64,000 bases of DNA from a virus, in the IMG/VR virus record IMGVR_UViG_3300034121_000850, positions 18,889-82,888 of that record. One strand, written 5' to 3'. A program made the position numbers and the translations under genes. The number at the start of each line of letters is the position of its first letter. Within the stretch, counting starts at the first letter, position 1. Shown piece by piece: positions 2,692-64,000 of the stretch. The notes beneath the pieces are model-generated. The model saw nothing but the letters and a program-made list of their open reading frames with translations, was not told where the DNA came from and searched no databases.

Positions 2692-3039
2692 ATGGAATTA
2701 CTTAGAGAACCAACCAATGATGAGTTAAAAAGATTTTTTGAAGAATTTGTACCTGTTAATAATTTTATTGCAGTTATACCTCCACAAGTTAAAGCTAAAA
2801 CAGCAGGGGGAATACATAAAACTGATTTAGAATTAAAGCAAGAACTTAATGCACAAAATAATTCTCCGATGCTTGTAATACATACAGGTGGAAATGAAGC
2901 TTTAAAAGTATTTGATAAAGTTATATTTTCAAGACACGCTGAACCTGATTACATTTTTCAACACCCAGTGCATAAAGGTTATCAGATAAGACTATATAAC
3001 TTTATATATGTAGTTGCTACTGTTAAACAAGACGCGTAA
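2692..3039 (+). CDS. GroES/Cpn10-like co-chaperonin
   Basis: PVNNFIAV..KTAGGI and LKVFDKVIFSRHA resemble GroES PLxDRVxV, KTxGGI mobile loop and VKVGDxVxF. Confidence 0.65.
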   Translation: MELLREPTNDELKRFFEEFVPVNNFIAVIPPQVKAKTAGGIHKTDLELKQELNAQNNSPMLVIHTGGNEALKVFDKVIFSRHAEPDYIFQHPVHKGYQIRLYNFIYVVATVKQDA

Positions 3040-3269
3040 TGTTAAAGATTATCAAGGTATCAAGTAAAACACCTATAAAGAAAGTAAGTAAGACTTTAGT
3101 TATTAAACCTGTAAAAGGAAATACTAACTTATTAACTACTTCGGATATATATAAAATACCATTAGATAACGGAGTTATTAGTTCTAAACATGGTTTTATA
3201 GGTAAAAGGATATTTTGTGCTAAAATATGTATGTTTAGTGGTAAATCAAGTATGCCTGATAAGATTTAA
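3039..3269 (+). CDS. hypothetical basic protein
   Basis: 76-aa ORF coupled to the previous gene (TAATG overlap). Confidence 0.5.
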   Translation: MLKIIKVSSKTPIKKVSKTLVIKPVKGNTNLLTTSDIYKIPLDNGVISSKHGFIGKRIFCAKICMFSGKSSMPDKI

Positions 3270-3286
3270 GTCAAAAAACAACGTAC

Positions 3287-3345
3287 AAAAAAAAGCCTTC
3301 TGCACCAATACCTTAACGGTTTTGATGTAGGAGGCTTAACTTTTT
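3287..3345. terminator. bidirectional terminator between convergent gene blocks
   Basis: A8 run, AAGCCTTCTGCA...TGTAGGAGGCTT stem, then a T-run, at the +/- convergence point. Confidence 0.7.
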
Positions 3346-3357
3346 GTTATAGTATGT

Positions 3358-6300
3358 TTAATTCGCGCTATACAACTTATAGTACCTATTATTATTCTCA
3401 AGATTAAACCATTTATCAATTTGATTTGCTAATGGTAAAGTCTTTATAAATTGCACTTGTACTTTCAATTCACCATGTCTTGCACCCCCGCGATAATAAT
3501 TTTTATCCTCTTGACCTGCAATAATATTTAAAGGATATTTAGCAACATTAGTTAAAAGTGTTAATATATCAGAACTAGCTTTAAAAGCAGCAGCAGGATT
3601 TTGAACTAATTTTTGTGATTCATTTATCCAACCATAAGGACTGTATGTATTTAATTCGCTTGCTATACCATCTAATTCATATAAAGCAAGATTATAAAAA
3701 GTAGAAGCTTTTAAATCTTCATCGTCATCTGCAAAAGAACGTAATAATCCTACTAATGCGAGGAATGCAACTACTGTAATCATTTCTAATAAAAACCTTT
3801 TAATTTCTCCTTTTTCTATATCAGATAATTCAAACCAATATATTTGTAAATTTTGTACAAACTCAGCATAATTATTAATTACACTACCAAGAGTTGCATA
3901 AAAATCCCTATCACCATCTTCATTCCAATGAAAATCTTTAGCTTCTTTAAAAGGTCTTGTAAGAAATTTCCAAGCAGAAATATAATCTCCAGTACTAGCA
4001 TAACCTAATGATTCATTATGTATAGTTTCACCAAAAACTTGTCCAAATCTTTTATTCCAACCAGGCATAGCCCAATGTCTAAATTGCATAATTAATTGAC
4101 CTGTAATAGTATGTTCTATCGTACCTTTATCAAAAGTATTATATATACCATGTATTCTATGATTTACTGCCATTATTTTTCTACGAAATGCACTTTCATC
4201 AAGAATACTTATACCACTATTAGGTTTTAATACAGCTAACCCATCTTTTAATTCATACATTTCTAAAACTTTTTTATAAGTTTTAAATTCTTCTTTTGCT
4301 TTTAAAACTTTTTCATTATACTCCTCCATAAGAGTAGGATTTTTTATAATTTCTTCTTTGGTAGGTTTATTTAATGATTCTTTATACATTCTAAAGTTCA
4401 TAATTTTACCACCAATTACTCTATGTGAGTGCATCATACTAAACATACCAGTCATTTGCATTTGATGTTCTGCACCATTCATCATAAAGAAACCAAAATC
4501 ATTTACTCTTTGTAAAGCTGTTTCTTTAGAAAATTCAAAATTATTATTCTTTTCAGATAATTCACGAGTATCCTGATAAATACCAAATCTTTTAATTAAA
4601 GCATTTTCTATTGAACTTGCGTTAGTAATATCGTCATTTTGCATATCTGTAAAATAACTTCCTAAACCATTATGATATGAACGCATACCACTTGCAAAAG
4701 ATTCTCTATCAAAATCTATTTCAGAACCTGATTCAATAGCCATTTGTATCATACCATAACCTTCATTTTTAATTGCAGCAAACATATTCAAATATAATCC
4801 TTTTAAAGATATAAACTGTTTTAAACCTTGTCCTAATTTAGTTTTCAAACCTTCATCTTCTAAATAATTACCTTCATAAAGCATTTCAATAAATAAATCA
4901 ATATGTTTAAGAACATTTGAATCTTTAGCGTCTACTAATACATTAGTAGAAGTTCCAGTAGCTTTAGACCTTAGTAAATCTAAAATTGAACCTTTTCCAT
5001 CTTGTCTAATAATTTTACTATTAGCTATTGCATATCTTAATAAAGTTATATCAGATTTTATATGTTGCATCATTTCATGGGAAACAGCAGCTTCAATAAA
5101 TTTAGGAAAAGTTTTACCTAAATCTAAATTAATAGAATTTTTATGTAGTTCTAAATTAGCAAGTTTTATTTCATTATTCTTATCTATAACTTCTTGTAAT
5201 GTTTTAAATTCACCAAGTTCAAGATACTCTAAATGAGATAGTACACTTGCTTCATAAGCTTCGGGAGTTTCACCTCTCATTTTTCTCCTTACAGGTAAAA
5301 GTTTTTCAGCACCAAGTAAACCTATAAAACGTAAAGGTGTTATAAGTACTTTTTCTCCTGATATATCAATTACTTGTTCATGAGGTTTTTTAGGTTTCTT
5401 TTTTTCTAATTTAATATATTCTTCAGTACCCATTGAAGGTATATTAGCTTCAGCAGCAGTTAAATTAGTATGTTTTAAAAGGTCAGCAAATTCTTTTTTA
5501 AAGTATGTATAAAATTCAAAAGCTTCGGGTTTACTTTTTAATACATCATAACCAGGATTAATCCAATTAGAATTTGGTAAAGCCATACCTTTAGCATCAG
5601 CTTTAAATTTAGGATTTATAAATTGAGATTTAACTTTACTACTTGTATAAACTCCACCAGGCATTAACATACTATCATAATATTCAACAATTTGTCCTTT
5701 TATTACAGTAGAAACAAGATTAATACTTAAATCCTTTGGCATTATAGTTGTCCATATACGAATAGGCTCAATTTTTTTAGTATAAGGATTTTCAGTATGA
5801 TTTAATTTATACCATGCAGTATCTTCAAAACCATTTTTTAATTTTTTAGTTCTTTTTGCGTAAAGGTCTATTTGCTTTGCAAGTTCAATATCGTAATATT
5901 CAGTAGTTTGAAAATCAACTAAATCTTGAAATTCTTTTAAAGCATCATCAAAATCAGCATTAGCAGGACCATCATATTCTTCTTCAGATTTAACAGAATC
6001 TTGTAATCTTCTAATTTTAAGAGCAACCTTTTCAGGAACTAAATGTCCCATAACTCTTCCTTGGTCATCAAGATAAGGTTTAGTTAACTTTTTAATTTCC
6101 TCATTAATGTCTACATTAGAGTCACTTCTAAGAATACTTAAAATTCCATTAAATTTATCCCAAAATGCAGGAGAAGGTTTAAAATTTCTTTGTATAGTAT
6201 GTTTAGATGTATCTGTATTTTTAATTGCTTTAAATTTTGCTAAATCATCTAATACTTCTTGTAATGGTACAATTAAAAATGATTCCATCATTTCAGTAAT

Positions 6301-9300
6301 ATCTTCATAATATTTAGCTAATTCTTTAGCATCTATATATTCTTGAGAAGCTACTTCAAAATTGTTAGGGTCACTATAAAATGCAGATAATGTTTTTAAT
6401 TCTCCTAATTCTTTTCTTTCTTGATATTTTATAGATTTACTATTAAAAGTTTTCTTTTTATAAGCTAATGTACCCTTATCTTTATCTAAAGTTTTTACAG
6501 TTTCTTTATTATACTTACTTAAAATTTTATTTTTAGCAGTTCTACTACTTATTACAAAATTTCTATTCTTTTCAGATAATTTTTGTTCTAAAGTGTAAAA
6601 TTCTTTAGTATATTGTTGTTGAGTATTTTCAGTATAAAAATCATTAATTATTTTTATTCTTTTTACATCATCATCTGCTAAATCAACAACAGATTCATAC
6701 ATAGCAGTTAAAGCATCATTAAAACCTTTAATATCATATTCATGAATAAGATTTTTATTCTCATCAATAAGGTCTATAATAGAATATTTTGATTCTGTAA
6801 ATTTAGCCCACCTTTTTTTAAATTGATTAATTTTTGCTATTGTTTTAGTATGTACTTTATGTTCATTTACTGCAAGAAGTTTAGCAAAATTAGCACCAAG
6901 AGCGTGTCTACTGTAAGATAAACTATCTGTTTTAAGAGCTATAGCAGTTTCATCAATAAGACCATCTTGGAATATTGTAGCAGCGTGTTTAATTACATTA
7001 GGGTCATTACTTGTTCTTGCAAAAGATTCTTGATACCTATCTAATAATACTTGAAAATTTTGTCTTAATTTATTAATTCTATTAGAATTTTTTTCAATAG
7101 TAAAAATAGTTGCATTAATAGTTTTTTTAAGAGCTTTTACTTCAGTAGTATCTGTTTCAAATATATCAATGTTTTTTAAATTTTTAGCTGCACTTGTACG
7201 GACTAAAAACTTTCTAATTCTTTCAACATATTCAGCTAATTTTCTTGCATCATCAGAATAGAAATTTTCTCCACCTTTTGCTATAAGCATTCTATTTATA
7301 AAAGTTTCAAAATCAAGTAAAGACTCTTTTTCAAATAAAACAGTTTTAGTTAAACTTCTTTTAATTTTACCTAAATTTTCTCTATTTAATAAATCAGCGG
7401 CTTCTATTTGCATTTTTTGTAAAAACCGTTCTTCTTCTAATACAGTATTAATCTTTGCAATAGAATCTTGTTGAGTTAAATTATTTCTAAATTGTAACTT
7501 ATGTAAATGTAATTGTGCTCTTTCATCTTCAAGATATTTTAAAACAGATTTAAGTTGCTCTATATCTTGAGCATCTTTTTGCCACATTAAAGTATCTTCA
7601 AGACGTTCATCAATTATTGTTTTAAGTTCCCCTGTAATTAAATCATCCGCTAATTGTTTGATTGCATCATCATTTAATCCTAGAAAATTACTTATTTTAG
7701 TAAATAATCTATTTAACCAATACTTCCATGTTTTAACTTCTTCAGCTGTATCATAAAGTTCATCAGCTTTAATTCCAATAGCAGTAGTAAGCACTTCTTT
7801 GGCTAAATCTTGTTCTGAAAGTTCGGGATAAATACGCTTTGTTTTAGTCCATAACATTGTACCTCTTAGCTGTTCTATTCCACGTTGAACAACTGGGTTA
7901 GTATAACCTAAAATGTCTATAAATAGATGCCCAAATTCATGGAACACACTATCAGTTAGACGTTTATTAGGGTCAATATTAATGGTTATATTACCATTAA
8001 CTACTTTATAATAATTCCCTTCTTCTTTCTCTGTAAAATTAACTTTAACTCCAGCTTTATTAAAAATATCTACAAGTTTTTTCTTTTTACGTTGATATTT
8101 TATATCAGAATCTATTGGTTCTGTTTTATTACCTAAATATTCTTTTTGATTTGAAACTTCTTCTTCTTCAGCTTTTACTAAAGTTACATCATTAAAAACA
8201 AAATGTCTAAAACCTTTTGCAGGTTGTTGAATTTCTTCTTTAACACTATAAGGTTTAAAATTAAAGAAATCATTTAAATCTTTCATTCTACCCATTAGAA
8301 TTTTAGCACTAATAATAGAAGTCCAAGATTGAATATTAGAATTTATATCACTACTTAAAGTATCTGCATCACTTGTAAAAATATCTATAACGTGGTCACC
8401 TATACTACCTGTAATAGTTAATGTATTATTTTTAGAAAAAACTTTTTCTACTGTATATTCAGGATATAATTTTTTTATAGCTTTTATATAATCAAATTGT
8501 TCTACAATTTTTCGTACATTTCTTTTTTTATCGCCATTTAATTTATAAGTTTTAAATACTTTTATAAGTTTATTAACATTATTATTATCAGTTAAAGATA
8601 GATTTTTAGTTAAAATAGTAAAATCTAAATCATGTAAATTTTCTTTTTCAGAACGAAATAACGTACCTTGTAATCTTAACGCTAAACTACCTGTTAAAAG
8701 AAATTTTAAATCAAAGAAGTTATTAATAATACTTTCAGCTTTTGCGTCTTTTTTAATAGTTTCTTCATAATTAGTTAACTGAACATCAGATTCTAAATTT
8801 TTAGAAAATTTATCAAAATTACTATTTATAATATCATTAGCAAAAGAATCAATTAAATTTATTACATCTTCTTTAGTAAATTCTTTTTCAACAGTTTTAA
8901 ATAATTTTTCAAATAATTGTTTTAACTCTTTTAAAATACTTTCAAGAAAAGAAAGTTCTTTAGCAGTACCTTTACCCCAATAATCAGCTTTTCTATGAAT
9001 ATAACTATCTTTAGGGTGTTCAAAATTATTTTTAATAGCATCTGCTAAATAATCTATTACAATTAATTTTTTAATTTGAGGAACACTTAAATTAGGACTT
9101 TTAGTTTTATATTCTTCAAATTTTTCATTATAATTGTCTAATTTTTCAATATTAAAAAATAAATCTGTTCTAACTTTATTTAACCTTCCAAGCATTGAAT
9201 AAGCTACATAAGCAGCTTCTTTTGGTAAAGTTTTAAAAGTTTCAGAATCTTTAATTAAAATAACTTTATATAATAAATCAGTAGCACTTAAAGCATTGTA

Positions 9301-18500: not shown

Positions 18501-21500
18501 AGACTCTTCAATTTGAGGAGCTTTTTCTGCTTTAAATAATTTATTAAAAAACTTAACAATAGAATTAATAATTCTATCAAAGAAACTATCACTTGCTTGT
18601 ATAGTTTCTTCTGAATCTATAACTTCTTTTGGGAATTGAAGTTTCTGTAATTCTTTTATTGTATTTTTATTAGAAATAGCTTCTGCAATAAATTCAAGTA
18701 AATTAATAGAAGATAAACTACTTCTATCAGAAGTTCTTTTCAAATATTCGTTAAATATTACATTAAGTTCTTTGTATAAATTATGAATATTCTTTTCAGA
18801 ACTGTTTAATTTATAGCCATCCTTAACAAGTTTATCTAAAACTTCTCCTTGCATAACAGCATCAACTGTTAATTGATGTCCCAATTCATGTACTAAAACA
18901 TGATTTGTAAAGTCATGGATATTTGTTTTAAACTTCTTAGGATTTATAAAAATAGTCTTACGTTTACGACTATAACGTGCAAATATAGAAGCCTTAGTTT
19001 TTCCAGTAGAATCTTCAAAGAATTTTGAATCATCTAAAACAACTAATTTAATACCATTATTATTAATAAAATGATTTAATATTGTTTTACCTAAAGTACT
19101 TTCAGTATTAGCTAATATGTTTTCAAAAAATTCAGAATTATTTTGAGCAGTTATAACATTCTTACTATGCTTTAAAACAACAGCATCAGTAATTTCCGGA
19201 ATATTAGCTTCATTATTATATAATGATTTTACATCAGCAAACCATAAATCATCCCCAAAAGTAGTAGGTTCTGATGAATCAGTTTTATCAGGTGTAGAAT
19301 CATCTACTTTATCTTCTTTTTTAAGTCCTGTACTGTCTAATGTTAAAACTAATGGATAATGCCCTTTTACAGCAATATTACCAACAAACTTTTTACCAAC
19401 TTTTACATCAGCAACATTTGTAGATAACACATCATTTTCAATAATCCAATCATAGTAATCTTCTTTTTTACCAGTTAAAGGATTAACAAAATTATCTACA
19501 CTCCTATAATCATAATTTCTTTTTAGTCCTTTAATAGCATCCTTAATTTTTGCTTTTGCTTTTGAACCTGTAATTAATTCATCATTTACAAGCATAGTAA
19601 CTAGACTATGCGCTTTACCAGCTTTATTAAAAGGATATATTTTATAAGAATCATTACCAATAGTAAATTCTATAATTTTATCAGAAATATTTACATTAAA
19701 ATAAGCAGCATTAACACCTTTAACATTTTTACGGAATCTACTACTTATAGGGGTAAATACACGAATCTTATCTTTTAAATTATTAATTTTATTATTAATT
19801 GTAGCTTCAGGGTCTTTATGAAATGCATCAATAATTTCTAAAATAGAATTATATACAAAATCCCTTGCTTCAAGATTATCACCTAAATCACTTCTAAATA
19901 ATTTAACAGGTATAGCTTTTCCTTTTACACCATCTATAACTAAATATTGAAAAGCGGATTCAAAATCTTTACCAAGAGTTTTTTCACCTTCTTCAATATA
20001 TCTATTATAAACAGGTTCTCCTGTTTTTAAATCAAAAAGCATTTTAGGATTTTCCCCTAATTTAGTAGATGCTATTGTTACTTTTAATTTTCCTTTTTTA
20101 AATTCTTTAATAGTTCTAAAAATGTAATTATTTTCTTTATCAACTGCAAATTGAACTGCCCCTGATGTTATTCTATTAACTTCAGTATCTACTGTTGCAT
20201 CAACTCCATTTTGTTGAATTTTACTTAAAAGTCTATTTCTTAATGTTTGAGTAGCTGCAAAATCGTTTTCTATGATAGTTTTCCACCTTGTTAAAGACCT
20301 ACGATAATCTTCACCCGTACTACTATTATCTACGTTTCTTGATAATAATTTTTGTAAATGGATTACTTTAGAAAAAGCGTTACCACTTGTTGATAATTCT
20401 AATATACTTGCTAAGTTATTACTTATACTTTTATAATTAAAATTAAAAACCTCTTTTCTTAACGCAACTAAATCTTCATTAGAATTTTTTAATAAAGCTT
20501 CAACTAATAAAGGTTCAGAAACTAAATGGACTAAACCACCTTTTGATGATACATTAGCTTCTTTTTCTTCTAAATTAACAGTATTGCCTGTTTTATTTAA
20601 ATGGGCGATAGCAACACCTTCTGTTGTTGATACTTTAATAGGTACACCTTTAATCCATTTTTCTAAATCTTCTTTAGATTTAGGTATTCCATTAAATTCT
20701 TTATTATCAGTATCAATAGATAATACTAATTTTGAACCATTAACTAATTCTTTAATAGCAGCAAGAGTTTTACCTTGTTCTTCTGTTAAAATAACATTTA
20801 TTTCTTCACGTTTTACTTTTTCTAAACTACTTATAAATACATTTACTCCACCACCTATATTAGATAGCATATCTTGAAATTCTTCAAAATCTTCTGTATT
20901 AGAATCTTTAGCAAGAAAGAAATCTTCTGCAACAACAGAGTTATAAGGAGTTTCTAAATCTGCTAAAATTTGTTTAATGGTTAAAAGATTTTGATTTATT
21001 TTAAGTTGAATTTCATATATTCTATTTAAAATAATAAGTTCATCCTCTTCTGATAAATTTTCATCATTATCTAACTTCTTTCTATAAAAAGAAAATAAAC
21101 CTAATAAACCTAATAAACTTGCTTCAGTAGGAGTATTAGGAACATTTGCAGTAGTAGGTTGAATATTACCTTCAATAGGTATTAATAATGCACCACCTGT
21201 CCAACCTTCATTATTAAATCCAGACCATTGCTTACTATCTATTTCACCATTAACAGCTTTTGGTTTAGCACTAAAAGAACCAACATCGTGATAACCAAGT
21301 ATTAAATCTTTTGGATTTAAATTATACTCTTTTTGAATTTGAATACCTTCATTTTCTATTTGATTCAAAGAACCTGCAAAATCTCTAACGATTGTATTAT
21401 CATATTTATCTTTAAATATAAATACAACAGAACCTCCACTAAATCTACTATAAGCATTTCTATCCTTATAAATTAAATAAGTTCCTGTTCCATCTTGTAA

Positions 21501-49433: not shown

Positions 49434-51845
49434 TTAGTCGTATTTATTCTTATTTGCTTTAGCAATAGCTAAATCATTATCAATCTTTTTATTCTTTAAC
49501 GCCAATTCAATACGCTTATTTACATTATCTAATTGTTTAGAAGATTCATCAAAATCTTGTTTACGTCTTGCTAAACTTGATTGTATATCAGATTTTTCTT
49601 GTTCTAATAAAAGCTTATTTTCAGCGTGTATATCAGGTGTATTTAAACCTGCTTGAATATCACTTAATGTTTTAGAATCAGCGTTTATCAATGCTACATC
49701 AACACCTTGTTGATAACTCTTATCAGCTACATATTTTGTAGTTTCAATTTTTAATTTATCCGCTTCACCTTTTAATTGTTGTGTTTGAAGTGCAAGTTGC
49801 TCTTTTTCTAATGATATAGATTTTTCATACTGCTTTTCAATCTTATCGTATTTAATCATAACATCAGTTATTTTACTAATACTATTAGCATCTATAATTG
49901 AAGCAATCATAGCAGGATTTTTATCATTCTGCGCTAAACTAAAAGCATAACCTTTCATAGCAGCAACTTTTTCTTTTTCTTGTATTGTGTTTTTAACAAA
50001 TACACCATAAGAACTATTTGCAATTTTTAAAGCATCTATTTCAACATTTTGAACTTCTCCAAGACGATTAATGTATCTACCTTTTTTACCATTTCGGAAA
50101 GCAACTTTACCATTATCTACTAAACCGTTTAAATCTGCTTCTATCCCATCATCAAACTTTCTACTAATTTCAGCAGTCATAATTGAACTACGTTGTAAAG
50201 CACTATCAACATTACCTTTCTTTTCAGAAGCTTTAATATCTCCTAAACGCTGTCTATTAAAACCAATAGAATCATAAGCTTCTATTTTAATAGATTCCAT
50301 TAAATTTCTTGTTTGTTCAATATAATTACCAAGACCTAAATCAACACCTTTAAGATATTGTAATGCTTGTGCTACTTTAGGGTTAGTTTCATCAAACCAT
50401 GATATACCTGTTGCTTCTACATAGTACATCCATTTTTCCATCTTCCAATCTTTTGGTATTAAACCAAAAGGCATCATCATCAACTTATCTTTATTCTTTG
50501 CCATTAACATTTCAAACCTGTAATGGTAAACATTGTACAACAACTGGTACGCCAATACTTGTTTCATTAAAGAGTACCTTCTACGAGTTCTTGTATAACC
50601 TATTTTACCATTATAAGGTAACTTACAACGACTGCTATTATTAATATCATTTCTTTGAACAGGTATCGGACCCCAATCAAAGTATAAAGCATCATATTCA
50701 GTACCTACTTTAAAAACTTGCCATACTTCATTAATGTATTCCCAATTTATAGAAATATCACCATTTAAAGTATCGAGTTTATAATTTTCATCAACCTCCA
50801 TTTCATCAGGTTGACCTAAAAGATTTATATATTGTAATACACCAACCTTCTTAAAAGTCTTCCAAACAATATGAAACAAATCAATATTACCATCACCAGT
50901 ATTAAAACTACTTAAAGCTTGTCTATCACCTAAAGCCATATGAGCAGCATCAGGTGTTGTAGAAACTCTATTATAATATTGAACAGAACCATTACTTATA
51001 GATTGTTCTGATATGGTTGTTAATCTTGTAATATCTTCTTCACCTAAATCTCCTCTCCATCTATCAACAACACTGTTAATAGTTGTAGTAGATTTACGAA
51101 CTACAGCACCAGCATCTTCTATTAGATTATGTTGTTTATCAAAATCAAACACAAAAATATCTTCGGGCATACAAACTTCATAATTAACATCATCATGCAA
51201 TACTTCTTTATATGTTACATATTCTCCTACTGCTACATAATCGCCCCAAGCATCTTGTATTTTATCTTTTAAATTTACAGTATATTCTATAAGTTCTAAT
51301 ATAGTTTGTCCGTCTTTAGCTTGTTCATCATCAAATTTACTACGCAGGGTAGCAACAAGATTTTCTAAACTATCAGTTTCTTCACTTGGAATACCTGTAT
51401 CAATACCTTTCTCATTGACACCTTTAATAAATTTCTTTTGTAAAGTCTTATCTATAGCCTTATCTAAAGCATCTTTAAACTCATTAATGATATCTGCGTT
51501 AGTTGCAACAACAGAATAATCAACAGGTAAATCAGAACGTTCACCAACTAAACTTCTATAAATTGTAGAAATGAAATCATAATTTCTTAGTTCAGCAGGA
51601 CGTTGTAGATACTTAACATCAGAAACTTTATAAGGATTTAAAACATACTCATAAAGCTTTTTATCTATAATACCATCAACAGCATCTCTAAGCATTCCCA
51701 TCTCTGCTCTATCTTCATCAAATGATGACATATTACTTGTATAGTAATCAGCGACTGCTTTTATAAATTCAGGTATTACATCACCTTCTTTAATAGCAAG
51801 TTTTTCAGCAGTAGAAATAGTTTGTTGAGGATAATTATTATTCAT
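49434..51845 (-). CDS. portal protein
   Basis: 803 aa; Y.YVLNPY, PA.LRNYD.I, W..INEVW, KLPYNG, YQ.LYN..HYR.E...AKNK, G..RQR.G. Confidence 0.92.
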   Translation of the reverse strand: MNNNYPQQTISTAEKLAIKEGDVIPEFIKAVADYYTSNMSSFDEDRAEMGMLRDAVDGIIDKKLYEYVLNPYKVSDVKYLQRPAELRNYDFISTIYRSLVGERSDLPVDYSVVATNADIINEFKDALDKAIDKTLQKKFIKGVNEKGIDTGIPSEETDSLENLVATLRSKFDDEQAKDGQTILELIEYTVNLKDKIQDAWGDYVAVGEYVTYKEVLHDDVNYEVCMPEDIFVFDFDKQHNLIEDAGAVVRKSTTTINSVVDRWRGDLGEEDITRLTTISEQSISNGSVQYYNRVSTTPDAAHMALGDRQALSSFNTGDGNIDLFHIVWKTFKKVGVLQYINLLGQPDEMEVDENYKLDTLNGDISINWEYINEVWQVFKVGTEYDALYFDWGPIPVQRNDINNSSRCKLPYNGKIGYTRTRRRYSLMKQVLAYQLLYNVYHYRFEMLMAKNKDKLMMMPFGLIPKDWKMEKWMYYVEATGISWFDETNPKVAQALQYLKGVDLGLGNYIEQTRNLMESIKIEAYDSIGFNRQRLGDIKASEKKGNVDSALQRSSIMTAEISRKFDDGIEADLNGLVDNGKVAFRNGKKGRYINRLGEVQNVEIDALKIANSSYGVFVKNTIQEKEKVAAMKGYAFSLAQNDKNPAMIASIIDANSISKITDVMIKYDKIEKQYEKSISLEKEQLALQTQQLKGEADKLKIETTKYVADKSYQQGVDVALINADSKTLSDIQAGLNTPDIHAENKLLLEQEKSDIQSSLARRKQDFDESSKQLDNVNKRIELALKNKKIDNDLAIAKANKNKYD

Positions 51846-59571: not shown

Positions 59572-59730
59572 GTTATTATGTATAAAAAATATAGTAAAAA
59601 ATTTTATATAGAAAAAATTTATAAGAGAGTGTTCCACCCTGATGAAACCCCCCTCTGATTTTCGAGCGAGTTGTAGCCCCGTACCTATAACTGCTCATTT
59701 ACAATTTAAATACTTAAAAACTTAGAAAAA

Positions 59731-60429
59731 ATGGCAAAAGCTATTCCTGTTAAAGTGAGCTCTACTGTAAGAGCAATTGTTGCACTTGACGTTGACCGTG
59801 AGGTTACTAATGGTAAGGGCAACACAAGTGTATACACTCATCGTATGCACCTTAACCAATCTCCATCCTTAAATGCTGCTCATAGTGAGTTAAGCAAAGT
59901 AAAGAACGAGAATGGTAAACCTTTATCCTTTGGTTCATTGACTAGCAATGGTACATTTGCTGTTGATTTGAAGGCAGGTGAAGCTAAGCGTCTTGCTAAT
60001 ATGGCAGGAGCAATGGGTATTAATCAGCTTGTTGGTGCTTCTTATCAAGGCACTATTGTATATAGACCGAAAGGTTCTACGTATGAAACAAGAGATGGTG
60101 AAACCCTTGAAGTTGGTTCTACACACGTAGCACGTGAAGATGAACAACTTAAGCTTACTATGGAGCAACTTAATGCAATAGCTTATGCTTCTGCAATGAT
60201 TGCTTCATCTACTGCTAAGAAGGAGGATGAAGTGATTCAATCATTTGGTTTCGGCTCTATTGCTGATGCTGGTAATGATGATGATGAATCACTTGATACA
60301 GGGTTTCAAGATGGTGAAGGTGCAGATGATGATTCGCAAGAATCTGAAACACCTGAAACAACAGAAACACCTGTTGATGACTTAGCTGATGTAGTAGCCA
60401 ATAAAAAGGCTGCTAAGGCAGGTAAGTAA
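59731..60429 (+). CDS. hypothetical protein with acidic C-terminal tail (possible ssDNA-binding protein)
   Basis: 232 aa, beta-rich N-terminus, D/E-rich tail, higher GC than flanks, followed by its own hairpin. Confidence 0.8.
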   Translation: MAKAIPVKVSSTVRAIVALDVDREVTNGKGNTSVYTHRMHLNQSPSLNAAHSELSKVKNENGKPLSFGSLTSNGTFAVDLKAGEAKRLANMAGAMGINQLVGASYQGTIVYRPKGSTYETRDGETLEVGSTHVAREDEQLKLTMEQLNAIAYASAMIASSTAKKEDEVIQSFGFGSIADAGNDDDESLDTGFQDGEGADDDSQESETPETTETPVDDLADVVANKKAAKAGK

Positions 60430-60436
60430 GGAATAT

Positions 60437-60484
60437 GATGGAGGAGTGCAGGTCGGGCTGCATTCCTTCGTCATAATTCTTTTG
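60437..60484 (+). terminator. terminator-like hairpin
   Basis: GATGGAGGAGTGCAG-GTCGGG-CTGCATTCCTTCGTC followed by ATAATTCTTTT. Confidence 0.6.
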
Positions 60485-60493
60485 TAAGAAGGG

Positions 60494-60546
60494 ATATCGA
60501 CAGAAAATGTCGATGTTTTAATAATATCGACAGAAGATTGTCGATA
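60494..60546. repeat. tandem pair of palindromes ATCGACA-N5/6-TGTCGAT
   Basis: Copies at 60496-60514 and 60525-60546, about 30 bp apart. Confidence 0.85.
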
Positions 60547-60677
60547 AAGGTAGACGGCATAAATAATTGGCTTAAATAGTTGAAAATATACTATTCGCAC
60601 CAGTTTAAATCGCTGCTCCAAAACTTGGTGTTAACAAAATTACAAGCGAAATTATAACTCAAATAACAACTGTAATC

Positions 60678-60911
60678 ATGGATGCTAATACAATTACACT
60701 AAAAATTAAAAGTAGTAAAGTTATGATTCATAATCATACTCTTCATGCTACGAGAGTAAAACATTGCGCAACGCATTCTATAAGTGATGAATTTAAATCA
60801 CAATATAGTCAAGTGTATTCAGTTGCTTGTCAGCAAATAAATGATGCCCTTATGCGTCAATATCAGCTTGAAATGTTATTATTTAAAGAACATCAAGATG
60901 ATATCAGGTAG
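60678..60911 (+). CDS. hypothetical protein
   Basis: 77-aa ORF with A-rich leader. Confidence 0.55.
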   Translation: MDANTITLKIKSSKVMIHNHTLHATRVKHCATHSISDEFKSQYSQVYSVACQQINDALMRQYQLEMLLFKEHQDDIR

Positions 60912-60990
60912 TGGATTACTAATAATCCTTGTTGTTATTGCAGTTGTTATAGTAGCTGAACAACGATACAAGGGAAGAAGAGGTTGGTAG
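60898..60990 (+). CDS. small single-pass membrane peptide (30 aa)
   Basis: MISGSGLLIILVVIAVVIVAEQRYKGRRGW*, overlapping the end of the previous ORF. Confidence 0.4.
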   Translation: MISGSGLLIILVVIAVVIVAEQRYKGRRGW

Positions 60991-61189
60991 TGCTGGTCTT
61001 GTTGCTTATAGTCTATGTGTGGTTAGTGCATATGATGATTTGTCTTATGGTTAGGGGTAACTAAGATGAAAGACTGTAAGAGAACGAGCCAGTACTACTA
61101 ATACCCTTATTGTTATTATTACTATTTTAGTTGCCCAAATTATACCGTAATACTTCAGTATTAACTAATTCATATAACCCCAATAACAG

Positions 61190-61800
61190 TAATAAGCAAT
61201 TATAATAAGGTAGGAATACCGCAAGTAACCATATAATCATGGGAAGTTGTATAGAATAAAATCTCTTGACTTATATTAAAGTTAATGTCTTAAAAGCAGA
61301 GAGTAATACAGGCTAAAATGCTGTTCTATATGATGGTGGAATACTATTATAATTGTATAATACTTTAATCAATGTATAACTCATGTAGTTAATATCTTAA
61401 ATGGTTGACTGAAGAAATATAGGTCGTAGAAATGCAAGTACATTTAAGATATGAAACTACCCTGATTAATATGACTCCTATACTTGAGATATAACATTAG
61501 TTATAATCAAAACAGTTAGAAATCAGTCTAAGCTTGTATGCTAAATATTAATCAGTATAAATGAGTAGTTGTAATAACCTAAATACGATGAATTAATATA
61601 TTCGTAATATGGTCTATGTTCTAAGATAAAGATATTATCAAGGATTATTACAACTAAGTACATTAATTATTAGTAAAAGGTTATAATACTTAGGTGGTTT
61701 CATAAGTATTATGTAAAACTGTTTAACGCAGTTTCCTTTTATTATATAATAAAGAATAACTCTTTTATGTTCCTGACATAGAGTATAAAGAATGTTAAAT
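61190..61800 (+). ncRNA. candidate large structured non-coding RNA (~600 nt)
   Basis: No credible ORF; nested 11-12 bp helices 61196-207/61345-356, 61392-403/61441-452, 61462-472/61545-555 and 61566-577/61645-656, plus GNRA-capped hairpins; strand inferred from GNRA loops and G-U pairs. Confidence 0.65.
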
Positions 61801-61811
61801 ACAAGGAGTGC

Positions 61812-62039
61812 ATGGTAGCTCAAACTCAAAAAACTTTAATCATGAATTTAGTTATTATTGATGACTTTGCTTTATCTCTTATAGATAAGGTAAATTTAAA
61901 AGAACTTAATAGAGAACATCATCCTGTAATAGTAGTTGTAGTAGATTCACATGGTTATTCCAAAAGATATAAACTAAGAGAAGATACTATTGAAACTTTT
62001 ATTGCTGATATTCCTACTAAATATCTTATGATAAGATAA
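61812..62039 (+). CDS. hypothetical protein (start may be the ATG at 61842)
   Basis: 75-aa ORF. Confidence 0.55.
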   Translation: MVAQTQKTLIMNLVIIDDFALSLIDKVNLKELNREHHPVIVVVVDSHGYSKRYKLREDTIETFIADIPTKYLMIR

Positions 62040-62133
62040 ACACTTTGAGTTCGGGGGAGATAACATCAAACCTGAACTTATAATACAAACAATTACTAAT
62101 TTTAAACATTACTAACCTTTAATAATTAAAACC

Positions 62134-63030
62134 ATGTCTTTATTGACCAATTCCAAAGTATCTGTAATATCAAATTTTATCAATGGTACTGATAGCAGTA
62201 TTACATTAAAACAAATACATGACTTTAATAGTCTTATGTATGGTTTAGCTGTTCATTATCAAGATGAAAAACTAACACCTTCATATACAATTATGTATGC
62301 ATTACATAATGAAGATTTACAAGTTACTCTTTCTGAGTATATGTATGAATATATGAATAGGCTTAATCAATATACTGATGTTCGATTAGTTATTCTTACA
62401 AAAAATAACAATCCTGATGTATATGATTATAATCAACCTACTTCAATTTGTGATGAATCATGTACTGATACAGTTCCTGCTCCTATAATTGAAGTTCCTG
62501 CTCCAATATATGATGAAGAATTTTTCAAAGATTTAGAACAAAGTGATGATGAACCAACAGCAATATCAACTAATAAATTTACTGATTCTGATTTTAAATC
62601 AGAAGATGAATTTATACCTGCTGTTGATAATTTTGATGAATTTGTAGAACCTACTGTTCAAATAGAAACTGATGGACCAATAGTATTAGGTACGATTGAT
62701 TTGAGAAATATTAGTTCTAATACTCTTGATGAATATTTTAAAGATATAAATGGTTTAGTGTATAACATTAGTTTTAACCCATTACCTGTTCATATTTATC
62801 AAGTTGTTGAACCTATATTTGATGAAACTGCTAATCAATCTCGTAATACTGTACAACTTCTTATGAATTGTATATCATTACAAGAAGCATTTGAAAGAGG
62901 ACAAAATTTAGAAGAACGTCGCAGTACATCTGTTGGTGATGTAATAAATGTTAAAGATAAATATTTCATGGTTTGTGGTCGTGGTTTTAAAGAGATAACA
63001 TACCATGAATGTCTTGGAATTGCTTTCTGA
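62134..63030 (+). CDS. hypothetical protein with acidic linker and C-terminal YodL-like domain
   Basis: C-terminal L.EAF...Q....RSTSVGDVI.....YFMV...GFKEI matches the YodL-like RSLSVSDVV motif. Confidence 0.7.
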   Translation: MSLLTNSKVSVISNFINGTDSSITLKQIHDFNSLMYGLAVHYQDEKLTPSYTIMYALHNEDLQVTLSEYMYEYMNRLNQYTDVRLVILTKNNNPDVYDYNQPTSICDESCTDTVPAPIIEVPAPIYDEEFFKDLEQSDDEPTAISTNKFTDSDFKSEDEFIPAVDNFDEFVEPTVQIETDGPIVLGTIDLRNISSNTLDEYFKDINGLVYNISFNPLPVHIYQVVEPIFDETANQSRNTVQLLMNCISLQEAFERGQNLEERRSTSVGDVINVKDKYFMVCGRGFKEITYHECLGIAF

Positions 63031-63054
63031 TTCTCAATAACATATTAAAATACT

Positions 63055-63212
63055 TAGACATTGTCCTTTTAAGTTAAGGCTTGCATGAAATGTCCGTCAG
63101 GTGAGATGCCTAATTCTTGTAGGAATACAAGGTCATAGCATAAGTGATTATGAAACAATGCAGGTTATATGTTCACTAGAAAACATAATGTAGGTGAAAA
63201 TCCTATAAACTA
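63055..63212 (+). ncRNA. candidate structured ncRNA
   Basis: Hairpins GACATT/AATGTC, CTTGTA-GGAA-TACAAG, CATAA-GTGA-TTATG, TATGTT/AACATA, AGG-TGAGATG-CCT, TAGG-TGAAAAT-CCTA. Confidence 0.55.
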
Positions 63213-63359
63213 AAAACTTAAATAACTTTCCAAGTTGTTGAGGACAGCATAGTTCTTTTTATAATTCAATATGATACTACCCAGAGTAAACAACTACTCG
63301 TATTAATTGATTATATAAAGTTTCTGCTGTAAAACACAAACTAACTAAAACAATTACCC

Positions 63360-63497
63360 ATGAAATTCTACAAGTTTAAAATTACGATTGATGGTATCCA
63401 ATATGGATATACAATGCGTGCTGTTTCATTCCTTAAAGCAATGAAAGAACTATTAACACGTTATGAGTACAAGTGTATTCATTTCGTTATGAATTAA
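63360..63497 (+). CDS. small hypothetical protein (45 aa)
   Basis: MKFYKFKITIDGIQYGYTMRAVSFLKAMKELLTRYEYKCIHFVMN* with an A-rich leader. Confidence 0.55.
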   Translation: MKFYKFKITIDGIQYGYTMRAVSFLKAMKELLTRYEYKCIHFVMN

Positions 63498-63528
63498 CCT
63501 TTTAATTAACCTGTAAATAATAAAACAA

Positions 63529-63741
63529 ATGCGTGTTCAAGTCCTCGATAATCAAACCTTTAACAAAGGTGGTAATGTTGCTGCTTTAAGAGCAGAAGTT
63601 GTTGCATCTAGTAATGCAAATAAAATTGATACTAAATCAATGTCATTTGAAAAGTATGCAAAAACAGCTGAAGATAAATTAGATTTAAAAGAAATGAAAG
63701 TTTCATTTAAATTAAACCCATTGGTATTCCCAATGATGTAA
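63529..63741 (+). CDS. hypothetical protein
   Basis: 70-aa ORF with an A-rich leader. Confidence 0.7.
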   Translation: MRVQVLDNQTFNKGGNVAALRAEVVASSNANKIDTKSMSFEKYAKTAEDKLDLKEMKVSFKLNPLVFPMM

Positions 63742-63748
63742 TTAATAT

Positions 63749-64000
63749 GGGGGCGACTGGTTTTGATTGCAATACGAATATTACTAACAAGCATGAGAAT
63801 GATATTATACTCATTAAAAATGTATATCACCAACAAACGGCAAAGTTAAGAACTTGTCTAATCATGTTGGGTTTGTAAACTATGCTGCACCACGTGTGCA
63901 GTATGGTATTGCTGCCTAAGTAAATGATATGAGCATCTATGCTTGGAAACAGAAAATAGAAAGCGTGAAGTAACTATAAAACTTAAATTATAGCAGTTCT
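63749..64000 (+). ncRNA. ssrA: tmRNA (5' part; 3' end beyond window)
   Basis: 5' GGGGGCGACTGGTTTTGA, CAAGCATG, PK1-like ATGAG/CTCAT pairing, and tag ORF 63839-63919 GKVKNLSNHVGFVNYAAPRVQYGIAA*. Confidence 0.88.

Follow-up and report, generated by a model that had tools for sequence, protein, structure and literature searches.

Twister is a self-cleaving ribozyme, described by Roth et al. (2014) and reviewed in PMC5408937, PMC6154101 and PMC11662667. The relevant sections of those reviews give it P1, P2 and P4 as its essential stems (P1 was later found to be unimportant for cleavage), optional stems P0, P3 and P5, and two pseudoknots, one of just two pairs, that connect loop L4 with L1 and L2. 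The same sections describe at least 10 nearly invariant residues in L1 and L4 and place the scissile step after a U of lesser conservation and before a highly conserved A adjoining P1. The chemistry of the reaction is well understood and its biological role is still open; in the pertinent part of PMC6765202, bacterial and phage twisters are suggested to process polycistronic transcripts. I consider here a stretch without genes, positions 61,190 to 61,800 of a 64,000-nucleotide (nt) sequence that will be called the window (positions 18,889 to 82,888, hence the final 64 kb, of the 82,888-nt IMG/VR virus record IMGVR_UViG_3300034121_000850). The central part of the stretch, 61368-61667 on the + strand, appears to be a diverged member of an uncatalogued family of structured RNAs, whose canonical members resemble twister and whose six helices the window's copy has kept. 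An initial annotation, made from the letters of the sequence, had instead proposed a single RNA of about 600 nt, perhaps one of the large ornate phage RNAs such as GOLLD and ROOL or a new class in Crassvirales.

Three other described systems bear on the locus. The crAss-like phage phi14:2 of Cellulophaga, the nearest one to have been studied, likewise has long gene-free stretches among its small early genes, transcribed in the direction of the genes and very abundant; according to the relevant part of Drobysheva et al. (bioRxiv 10.1101/2020.03.07.982082), two such intergenic stretches out-transcribe most genes and persist through infection. There is a transfer-messenger RNA (tmRNA) in the same island of phi14:2, as there is in the window's phage. 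The two differ in that phi14:2 has no sequence similarity to the window: I sought but did not find homology either between early proteins or with its intergenic transcript, whose stretch 2905-3589 folds no better than shuffled sequence (z -0.32) and shows none of the family motifs. GOLLD and ROOL (both in Rfam) resemble the family in being phage-borne, several hundred nt long, composed of many helices, and frequently close to tRNA genes (in the family, 10 of 31 loci have tRNA or tmRNA genes). They differ from it in having a large conserved architecture, where conservation in the family is centered on a small core, ribozyme-like and with arms that vary. The proximity to tRNA genes to which the initial annotation appealed does not hold within the window, where a tRNA search found none, though a tmRNA lies 2 kb downstream. 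Hatchet (RF02678), finally, is another small self-cleaving ribozyme, with another fold and other motifs, that Rfam does not find in the window. It does occur in the same gene-poor region of one carrier of the family, roughly 1 kb upstream of that carrier's own element (L039 2006-2161, - strand, 82.6 bits).

The helices that were first noticed in the stretch are real and not the product of chance. All of them were found where they had been placed, and the minimum-free-energy fold recovers every one together with their nesting. On the + strand these are H1 (61196-207/61345-356), H2 (61392-403/61441-452; 12 base pairs, bp), H3 (61462-472/61545-555; 11 bp), and H4 (61566-577/61645-656; 12 bp, lengthened by 61578-80/61641-43). 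H1 was rightly located but is composed of 11 Watson-Crick pairs and one terminal G·U, not of 12 perfect pairs. The long-range pairs ACTCAT/ATGAGT and AATGTA/TACATT are recovered as well, and a set of hairpins is present at the 3' end (61666-61780). Perfect inverted repeats of at least 11 bp with a loop of at most 200 nt number 22 in the 82,888-nt genome, and four of these lie within 61197-61656; dinucleotide shuffles of 61065-61811 contain on average 0.19 such repeats, and none of 1000 reached four.

The comparison with shuffled sequence that the initial annotation had proposed as a check came out in favor of structure. The whole 611 nt folds with -135.1 kcal/mol (z -3.49), a stability equaled by none of 20 shuffles, and the - strand has a z of -2.87. 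For the central 300 nt z is -5.20, with none of 200 shuffles as good, and the closing pairs P1-P3 (described below) outperform 392 of 400 linker shuffles. When corrected for GC content, however, the region ranks only 17th among 549 segments of the genome. The interiors of the four long stems have z values of -0.90 (H1, the long stem of domain 1), -0.26 (H2), -0.94 (H3) and +0.28 (H4), no better than shuffles. The excess stability therefore resides in the closing stems and not, as had been supposed, in multibranch junctions that the long helices enclose. A search with Rfam 15 at the gathering threshold found nothing in the window, which agrees with the earlier statement that no known family could be assigned. 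At E<=10 the region 60400-64000 gave only noise, with no match to GOLLD, ROOL or any other large RNA.

Relatives were sought by pattern. A DNA pattern derived from the H2 arm returned 49 stretches from IMG/VR, three of which (L027, L039 and L045) are 80-92% identical to part of the window. By blastn, 61378-61471 is 92% identical to L039 and L045 (E 1e-31 to L039) and 80% identical to L027. An alignment of the window with these three loci already showed compensatory changes: within H2, the pair 61393U-61451A is C-G in L027, and 61408A-61424U is G-C in L039 and L045. A second pattern, based on the conserved junctions, found 12 loci and a third, based on the 3' core, found 34, making 37 distinct loci overall. 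The carriers appear to be uncultured, mostly aquatic crAss-like phages (Crassvirales), the Pfam domain Crass_capsid being found in three of the five carrier records searched (the completeness of the remaining two is 54% and 64%). A blastn search of GenBank phages with a canonical member detected no member of the family.

The members are about 225-411 nt in length and have six helices in the fixed order P1, P2, P3, H2, H3, H4. P1 encloses P2 and H4, while P2 encloses H3 and P3, the latter itself enclosing H2; the junctions between them are strongly conserved. (Stems of twister itself, numbered differently, will always be named as such.) The layout begins with UAAUGCAC (P1, 5' strand), CA(C/U)(AA/U), CUCAC (P2, 5' strand), GU(A/G)G (P3, 5' strand), AUAUAAAG and the H2 arm. 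It continues with GAAA, C(U/C)AC (P3, 3' strand), C, CUGAUUAA, an H3 arm whose interior varies from 29 to 151 nt, and UUAAUCAG. It concludes with (C/U)UCCCAAG(G/A), GUGAG (P2, 3' strand), CAGUUGUAAU, an H4 arm of 31-94 nt, likewise variable, AUUACAACUG, A, GUGCA (P1, 3' strand) and GAGGG, where the elements end. The canonical junctions may be summarized as N followed by AAUGCACC, then (C/U)UCCCAAG(G/A)(G/A)-GUGAG, and then GUGCA-GAGGG, and the conserved stem sequences are CUGAUUAA/UUAAUCAG for H3 and AGUUGUAA/UUACAACU for H4.

The window aligns on every one of these anchors, all on the + strand. Its P1 (61371-61377 with 61658-61664) corresponds to UGCAC/GUGCA of the relatives and to twister P2, and its P2 (61379-61384 with 61561-61566) corresponds to CUCAC/GUGAG and to twister P4. 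P3 pairs 61385-61390 with 61455-61460. The H2 arm (61392-61452) carries two inner hairpins within its stem, 61407-25 and GUA-GAAA-UGC at 61426-35. The stem of the H3 arm (61462-61555) surrounds a variable interior of 72 nt, and that of the H4 arm (61566-61656) likewise surrounds a variable interior.

Conservation of the structure was assessed in an alignment (A5) of the window with 22 unique complete members, in which the six helices plus one candidate pseudoknot were counted. Of 1068 cells, 92.1% are paired, a share that falls to 30.2-44.3% in controls with slid 3' partners. There are 34 cells in which both sides have changed, where shuffles give 15.9 +/- 2.9, and the covariation score is 0.113, against 0.075; none of 500 shuffles reached either value. 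P1 and P2, both present in the window, are 99.1% paired each, H3 87.7% and H4 97.2%. The third pair of P3 is AU in 14 sequences and GC in 8, unbroken in these 22, and a covarying pair in P2 is CG in 17, UA in 4 and UG in one. The ninth pair of H3 occurs as UA (9), CG (4), GC (2) and UG (1). In H4 the first pair is U-A in the window and C-G in all 22 relatives, and the tenth and eleventh pairs covary. An earlier alignment of 10 sequences gave the same picture.

Within the family, G·U pairs are found on the given strand only (UG:4, UG:4, UG:7, GU:2), which indicates that the structure is selected in the RNA of the window's + strand. The fold of the window's + strand has 20 G·U pairs, as compared to 9 for the - strand. 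Covariation among the relatives thus supports the nested model first drawn for 61371-61664, and the stretch does hold, as was supposed, a genuine and conserved structured RNA that is absent from Rfam. The homologs and covariation that had been proposed as a check were obtained for the central domain, and not for domain 1 or the 3' hairpins.

How close does this family come to twister? Canonical members agree with it in the core, by order as well as by sequence: N and then AA, a 4-5-bp twister P2, CC, twister P4 with UCCCAAG before its 3' strand, the 3' strand of twister P2, and then GAGGG, with an optional flanking twister P1. H4 stands at the position of the rare optional twister P5, and the family, like twister, is found in phage genomes. 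The AA that precedes UG is invariant in all 23 sequences, as is AAUG as a whole. UCCCAAG and GAGGG are both kept in 20 of the 22 relatives, the exceptions being L039, with UUCCAAAG and GAUGGG, and L083, which has UCCCAAG but lacks GAGGG. UCCC and GGGA are paired in 92% of cases (helix 6 of A5), and a flanking twister P1 of at least 4 bp, with sequences that differ, is present in 7 of 21 members, as compared to 12.6% in cross-pairings. These hallmark motifs, together with the extra arms, set the family apart from a class of the GOLLD or ROOL kind.

The family differs from twister by a two-arm insert of 100-300 nt (P3-H2 and H3) within L4, a loop in which no auxiliary stem has been described. 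Inserts of this size may explain why the Rfam models (RF03160 and the permuted forms) miss all members tested. The canonical layout is best read as a type-P1 twister self-cleaving ribozyme with the extra two-arm insert in L4, and to judge from these motifs the family quite probably derives from twister. Literature searches on non-coding RNAs of crAss-like phages and on twister in crAss phages, Yutin et al. 2021 (PMC7886860) included, yielded no description of it.

Several observations weigh against this interpretation. A search with the Rfam twister models at the gathering threshold matched none of 11 member loci, nor did a search at E<=10 reveal twister in L076 or in the smallest member, L084, and RF03160 used alone at E<=10 matched none of five records. 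A flanking twister P1 of at least 3 bp is missing in 13 of 21 members. The UCCC/GGGA pseudoknot, the one of the two that was counted, shows no compensatory change, and where two of its pairs vary they do so on a single side. The comparison of motifs was made in part with what I take to be the twister consensus. Most pairs of the core are invariant, so that covariation is carried by about nine pairs, and for the number of pairs changed on both sides the control is weak, 28 of 500 shuffles reaching 9. The window's long stems are perfectly Watson-Crick and fold on both strands, which for this one copy leaves some room for a role as DNA.

The counts, moreover, pertain to members selected by their fit to my anchors; of the 37 loci, 15 lie outside A5. 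Two of these are duplicates (L045 of L039, L081 of L078). In L086, L101 and L104 an insert interrupts the 3' anchor; L089, L093 and L097 either stop short at the end of the locus or lack an anchor; the 5' parts of L085, L087, L092, L099 and L102 do not fit the anchor; and L096 has the first anchor only. The last, L074 (about 10150-9700, - strand), has a copy of the family that ends after H3 and is followed by an open reading frame (ORF), which might conceivably encode a homing endonuclease. Short "mini" copies, recognized by eye, occur in L085, L087, L090 (upstream of the full element) and L065 (1190-1040). They consist of the P1 strands and an H4-type hairpin (AGUUGUAAU ... AUUACAACU, then GUGCAGAG) just before or after full elements, and so the H4 module may recur independently.

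The copy in the window is the most diverged of the members. It keeps AAUG, alone among the junction motifs AAUGCACC, UCCCAAG and GAGGG, and all six helices. Gaps are found at seven nearly invariant columns, 9-11 (CAC) and 307-310 (UCCC), the loop before the 3' strand of P2 is 5 nt long (UAUAA) rather than 9-10, and GAGGG is replaced by UUAAUU. With UCCCAAG, GAGGG and CC the window has lost both pseudoknot partners and the conserved loop. The AA, instead of standing unpaired in L1, is predicted to be drawn into a P1 that has been lengthened to 7 bp through pairing with UU. Lacking these motifs and with its AA paired, the copy should not cleave according to the twister model, and most likely it no longer does.

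The helices tell a different story from the core. Compared with L039, its nearest relative, the window's copy has five changes that preserve pairing: C-G to U-A in P1, in P2, and in the first pair of H4; A-U to U-A in the eleventh pair of H3; and a change of the eleventh and twelfth pairs of H4. All five are my own reading, and in P1 MAFFT placed the window's three bases elsewhere. No change breaks a helix, though the interiors of the arms can no longer be aligned, and the helices of the window are both longer and closer to perfect than their counterparts in the relatives. Compensatory changes in helices that remain intact suggest that selection has gone on acting on the fold since the core was lost.

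The account that I favor, and on balance consider probable, is that 61368-61667 functions as + strand RNA, a copy without the core but with the helices of an element that in the relatives cuts the transcript in the manner of twister. In those relatives, cleavage would occur in a polycistronic, presumably early, transcript between N and the invariant A, in a core where UGCA(C) would serve as twister P2 and CUCAC/GUGAG as twister P4, and where CCC of the L4 loop and GG would form the two pseudoknots. In the lineage of the window, CC, UCCCAAG and GAGGG would have been lost, AA would have been sequestered in the lengthened P1, and self-cleavage would have disappeared. What is left could be a cis-acting structure that sets a boundary of processing or stability within the transcript, for example as the substrate of a double-strand-specific RNase. 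A bolder proposal, which I offer only tentatively, is that what was once a ribozyme serves here purely as a structural RNA, having lost the catalytic loop along with both pseudoknots while selection kept and lengthened its six helices as a scaffold with a new job. That job might be to present a site to a double-strand-specific RNase, to serve as a docking platform for phage or host protein, or to mark a stability boundary in what is presumed to be an early operon of small genes.

A ribozyme without a core could also be a dead relic that drifts, its helices intact for lack of time. The loss of every hallmark core motif and arm interiors no better folded than shuffles are what one would expect of a relic, and the near-identical strains in four lake runs (see below) are silent on constraint. 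Drift accords poorly, however, with five compensatory double changes and no broken helix relative to L039 when the loops have diverged past alignment, with stems that exceed those of the relatives in length and perfection, or with the retention of 750 nt by a compact genome that has three gaps of at least 200 nt, and I judge it unlikely. Equally doubtful is the converse, that the window's copy is still an active twister with pseudoknots and loop rebuilt from A and U in a genome of 28% G+C. It is true that AAUG and all helices are intact, that AUAA in the shortened loop could (by eye) pair with UUAU of the 3' tail, and that twisters tolerate many imperfections, as stated in part of PMC11662667. 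The same part of that review, however, reports mutations of conserved L1 residues to be deleterious, and here seven nearly invariant columns are deleted, the loop is about half its usual length and the AA is sequestered; a 4-bp match of A and U is to be expected by chance at this composition. As for the original proposal, that all of 61190-61800 is one large RNA of a new class whose domains act jointly, its appeal lies in the absence of an ORF, in z values below shuffles for the whole, for domain 1 (-2.70) and for the 3' set (-3.54), and in the abundant long non-coding early transcripts of phi14:2 (described in part of bioRxiv 10.1101/2020.03.07.982082). I nevertheless hold it to be improbable, since blastn across 39 family loci found homologs for 61378-61476 only, the relatives' element is complete at GUGCA-GAGGG, Rfam gives no match to a large RNA even at the permissive threshold, and a conserved block that starts a gene begins at 61756.

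The remaining alternatives place the function in DNA. The cluster of inverted repeats might serve replication or packaging, or provide hairpin promoters on single-stranded DNA for a virion RNA polymerase, and the phage does encode a virion-polymerase-like ORF of 5748 amino acids (aa). Four long stems of perfect Watson-Crick pairs in an AT-rich context would suit such a role, as would the - strand, which beats shuffles not only overall but also in its arms (-3.12, -4.38 and -3.20). The arms lie 37-137 nt apart, however, too distant for cruciform extrusion, and would pair readily only in a single strand. This spacing and the restriction of the family's G·U pairs to one strand make function as RNA much likelier than function as DNA, which I regard as quite improbable. 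DnaA boxes are no more frequent than chance and absent from the stretch, there are no iterons, the GC skew turns at about 57,300 and not at the element, and the early transcripts of phi14:2 have no common upstream motif, so far as part of bioRxiv 10.1101/2020.03.07.982082 describes them. Four adjacent units, each between inverted repeats of 11-12 bp, might also suggest a mobile or invertible cassette (units like miniature inverted-repeat transposable elements, or invertons), the more so as one contig from lake run X2 carries the H2 unit only, amid unlike flanks. That contig, however, matches a family member of the L045 type and not a transposed copy. With no second copy in the genome, no joints in the lake runs, the order of units fixed across the family, and neither resolvase, tyrosine recombinase nor reverse transcriptase found in the phage, a cassette is scarcely credible.

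If the favored account is correct, a twister-like element in the relatives and a coreless structural copy in the window, then a copy that has lost its core but maintained its helices separates the role of scaffold from that of cleavage, and would exemplify the re-use of a ribozyme in a structural capacity. A large family invisible to Rfam, its twister-type core enlarged by two or three big arms, offers many natural contexts in crAss phages in which the purpose of the cut could be studied: small early genes, islands of tRNA and tmRNA, and neighboring conserved RNA modules. For annotation, the point is that a seemingly empty stretch of 750 nt is mostly not junk, the evidence for this pertaining only to its middle part.

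The flanks of the central domain are of another nature. Domain 1 (61196-61356, +) is a hairpin domain with a long stem, and the 3' set (61666-61755, +; the z given above is for 61665-61800) is Y-shaped and includes a 16-nt palindrome at 61738-61753 as well as a sigma-70-like site at 61723-61750, which is a match to consensus only. Blastn of either one against the 39 family loci gave no match. The evidence for both is thermodynamic, and they appear to be lineage-specific flanks. The block 61756-61832 (+), with AAGGAG and the start of a gene for 75 aa, is 93.5% identical over 77 nt to L092 5628-5552, where it precedes a homologous small gene, and contigs of runs X2 and X5 contain it too, amid different flanks. 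The sequence from 61756 onward belongs to the 75-aa gene and not to the RNA.

The window's sequence occurs in lake-water metagenome runs, four of which provided low-coverage contigs of near-identical strains; these carry neither covariation nor transcript information. Pieces across 61177-61722 are identical to the window in all four runs, which is compatible with constraint but proves little. Changes cluster upstream, in a strain-variable spacer directly 5' of domain 1 (61112-61192, +). A 2-kb contig of run X2 has 14 listed substitutions and two indels in the 42 nt 61112-61153, with a single differing site in the flanks 59700-61111 and 61154-61499, and this patch looks like a local replacement or a hypervariable spot. 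Run X3 has five changes in 61158-61192.

The phage itself is, judging from its proteins, a deep lineage of Crassvirales, in keeping with the initial placement. A 484-aa protein matches Crass_capsid (E 5e-67), and the identity of the capsid protein to any GenBank phage does not exceed 38%. A 312-nt repeat, with a single mismatch, is shared by the two ends of the contig, and the genome can therefore be taken as essentially complete. The element sits within a block of small + strand genes that extends into the start of the record, and the interval around it, 61065-61811, is the biggest of just three gaps of at least 200 nt in the genome without an ORF of at least 60 aa. No ORF is present there under genetic code table 11, with TAG read as Q, or under table 4, in accord with the first reading of the sequence. 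Promoters of the Bacteroidota type or the sigma-70 type were also considered as evidence and dismissed, their counts being at chance level.

Other routes to relatives led nowhere. Blastn of 61000-62100 against GenBank phages found nothing. The flanking proteins of 298 and 232 aa, used as single sequences or two-sequence alignments against viral, metagenome and genome contigs, gave no related loci, and by tblastn against phages the two gave a single match (in a 595-kb phage, 31% identical across 38% of the protein). A protein homolog search produced one relative for each (P0002, 51%; P0004, 61%). Relatives reached through a 726-aa protein (L002-L006, 37-46% identity) were too short or too distant, a genome of 58% G+C (G001) had no comparable gap, and a pattern scan with the 3' end of the tmRNA returned five unrelated phages.

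The island in the window's phage comprises the element, two short conserved non-coding modules (63134-63207 and 63211-63269), and a tmRNA of 400 nt. Both modules are 76-87% identical to sequences directly behind the element in L091, L092, L102, L090 and L099, and 63211-63269 is matched also in L077 and L074, elsewhere in the locus. In the window's phage two protein genes stand between the element and the modules, which may be further RNA parts of one island. The tmRNA occupies 63748-64000 of the window and continues at genome positions 61-460. The 312-nt repeat at the contig ends accounts for its being split in the window; in the whole record ARAGORN and Rfam (70 bits) find it complete, its tag being the 26 aa GKVKNLSNHVGFVNYAAPRVQYGIAA. 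At genome 3624-3710 there is a tRNA-Leu(TAA). Genes for tmRNA appear to recur in this group of phages. L084 has one at 8424-8818, also with a 26-aa tag, 6 kb downstream of its element, and G001 has one at 50967-51333 (95.9 bits). In phi14:2 (L015, NC_021806) one of the two abundant intergenic RNAs, that at the g005-g006 junction (4031-4502), is an unannotated tmRNA according to Rfam (score 46 bits, cut-off 47, E 3.6e-16).

Two features upstream of the element deserve mention. Between a gene for 77 aa and the non-coding stretch (60898-61064) are two tiny hydrophobic ORFs, recognized by eye, one of 30 aa from an internal ATG at 60898 and one of 26 aa at 60984-61064, which may be real membrane peptides. 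Farther upstream, 59713-60900 folds more strongly than any other part of the genome once GC content is corrected for (ranks 1-5 among 549). It spans the gene for the 232-aa protein, unusually rich in G+C (40% as compared to 28%), and an 18-bp terminator-like hairpin at 60434-60475.

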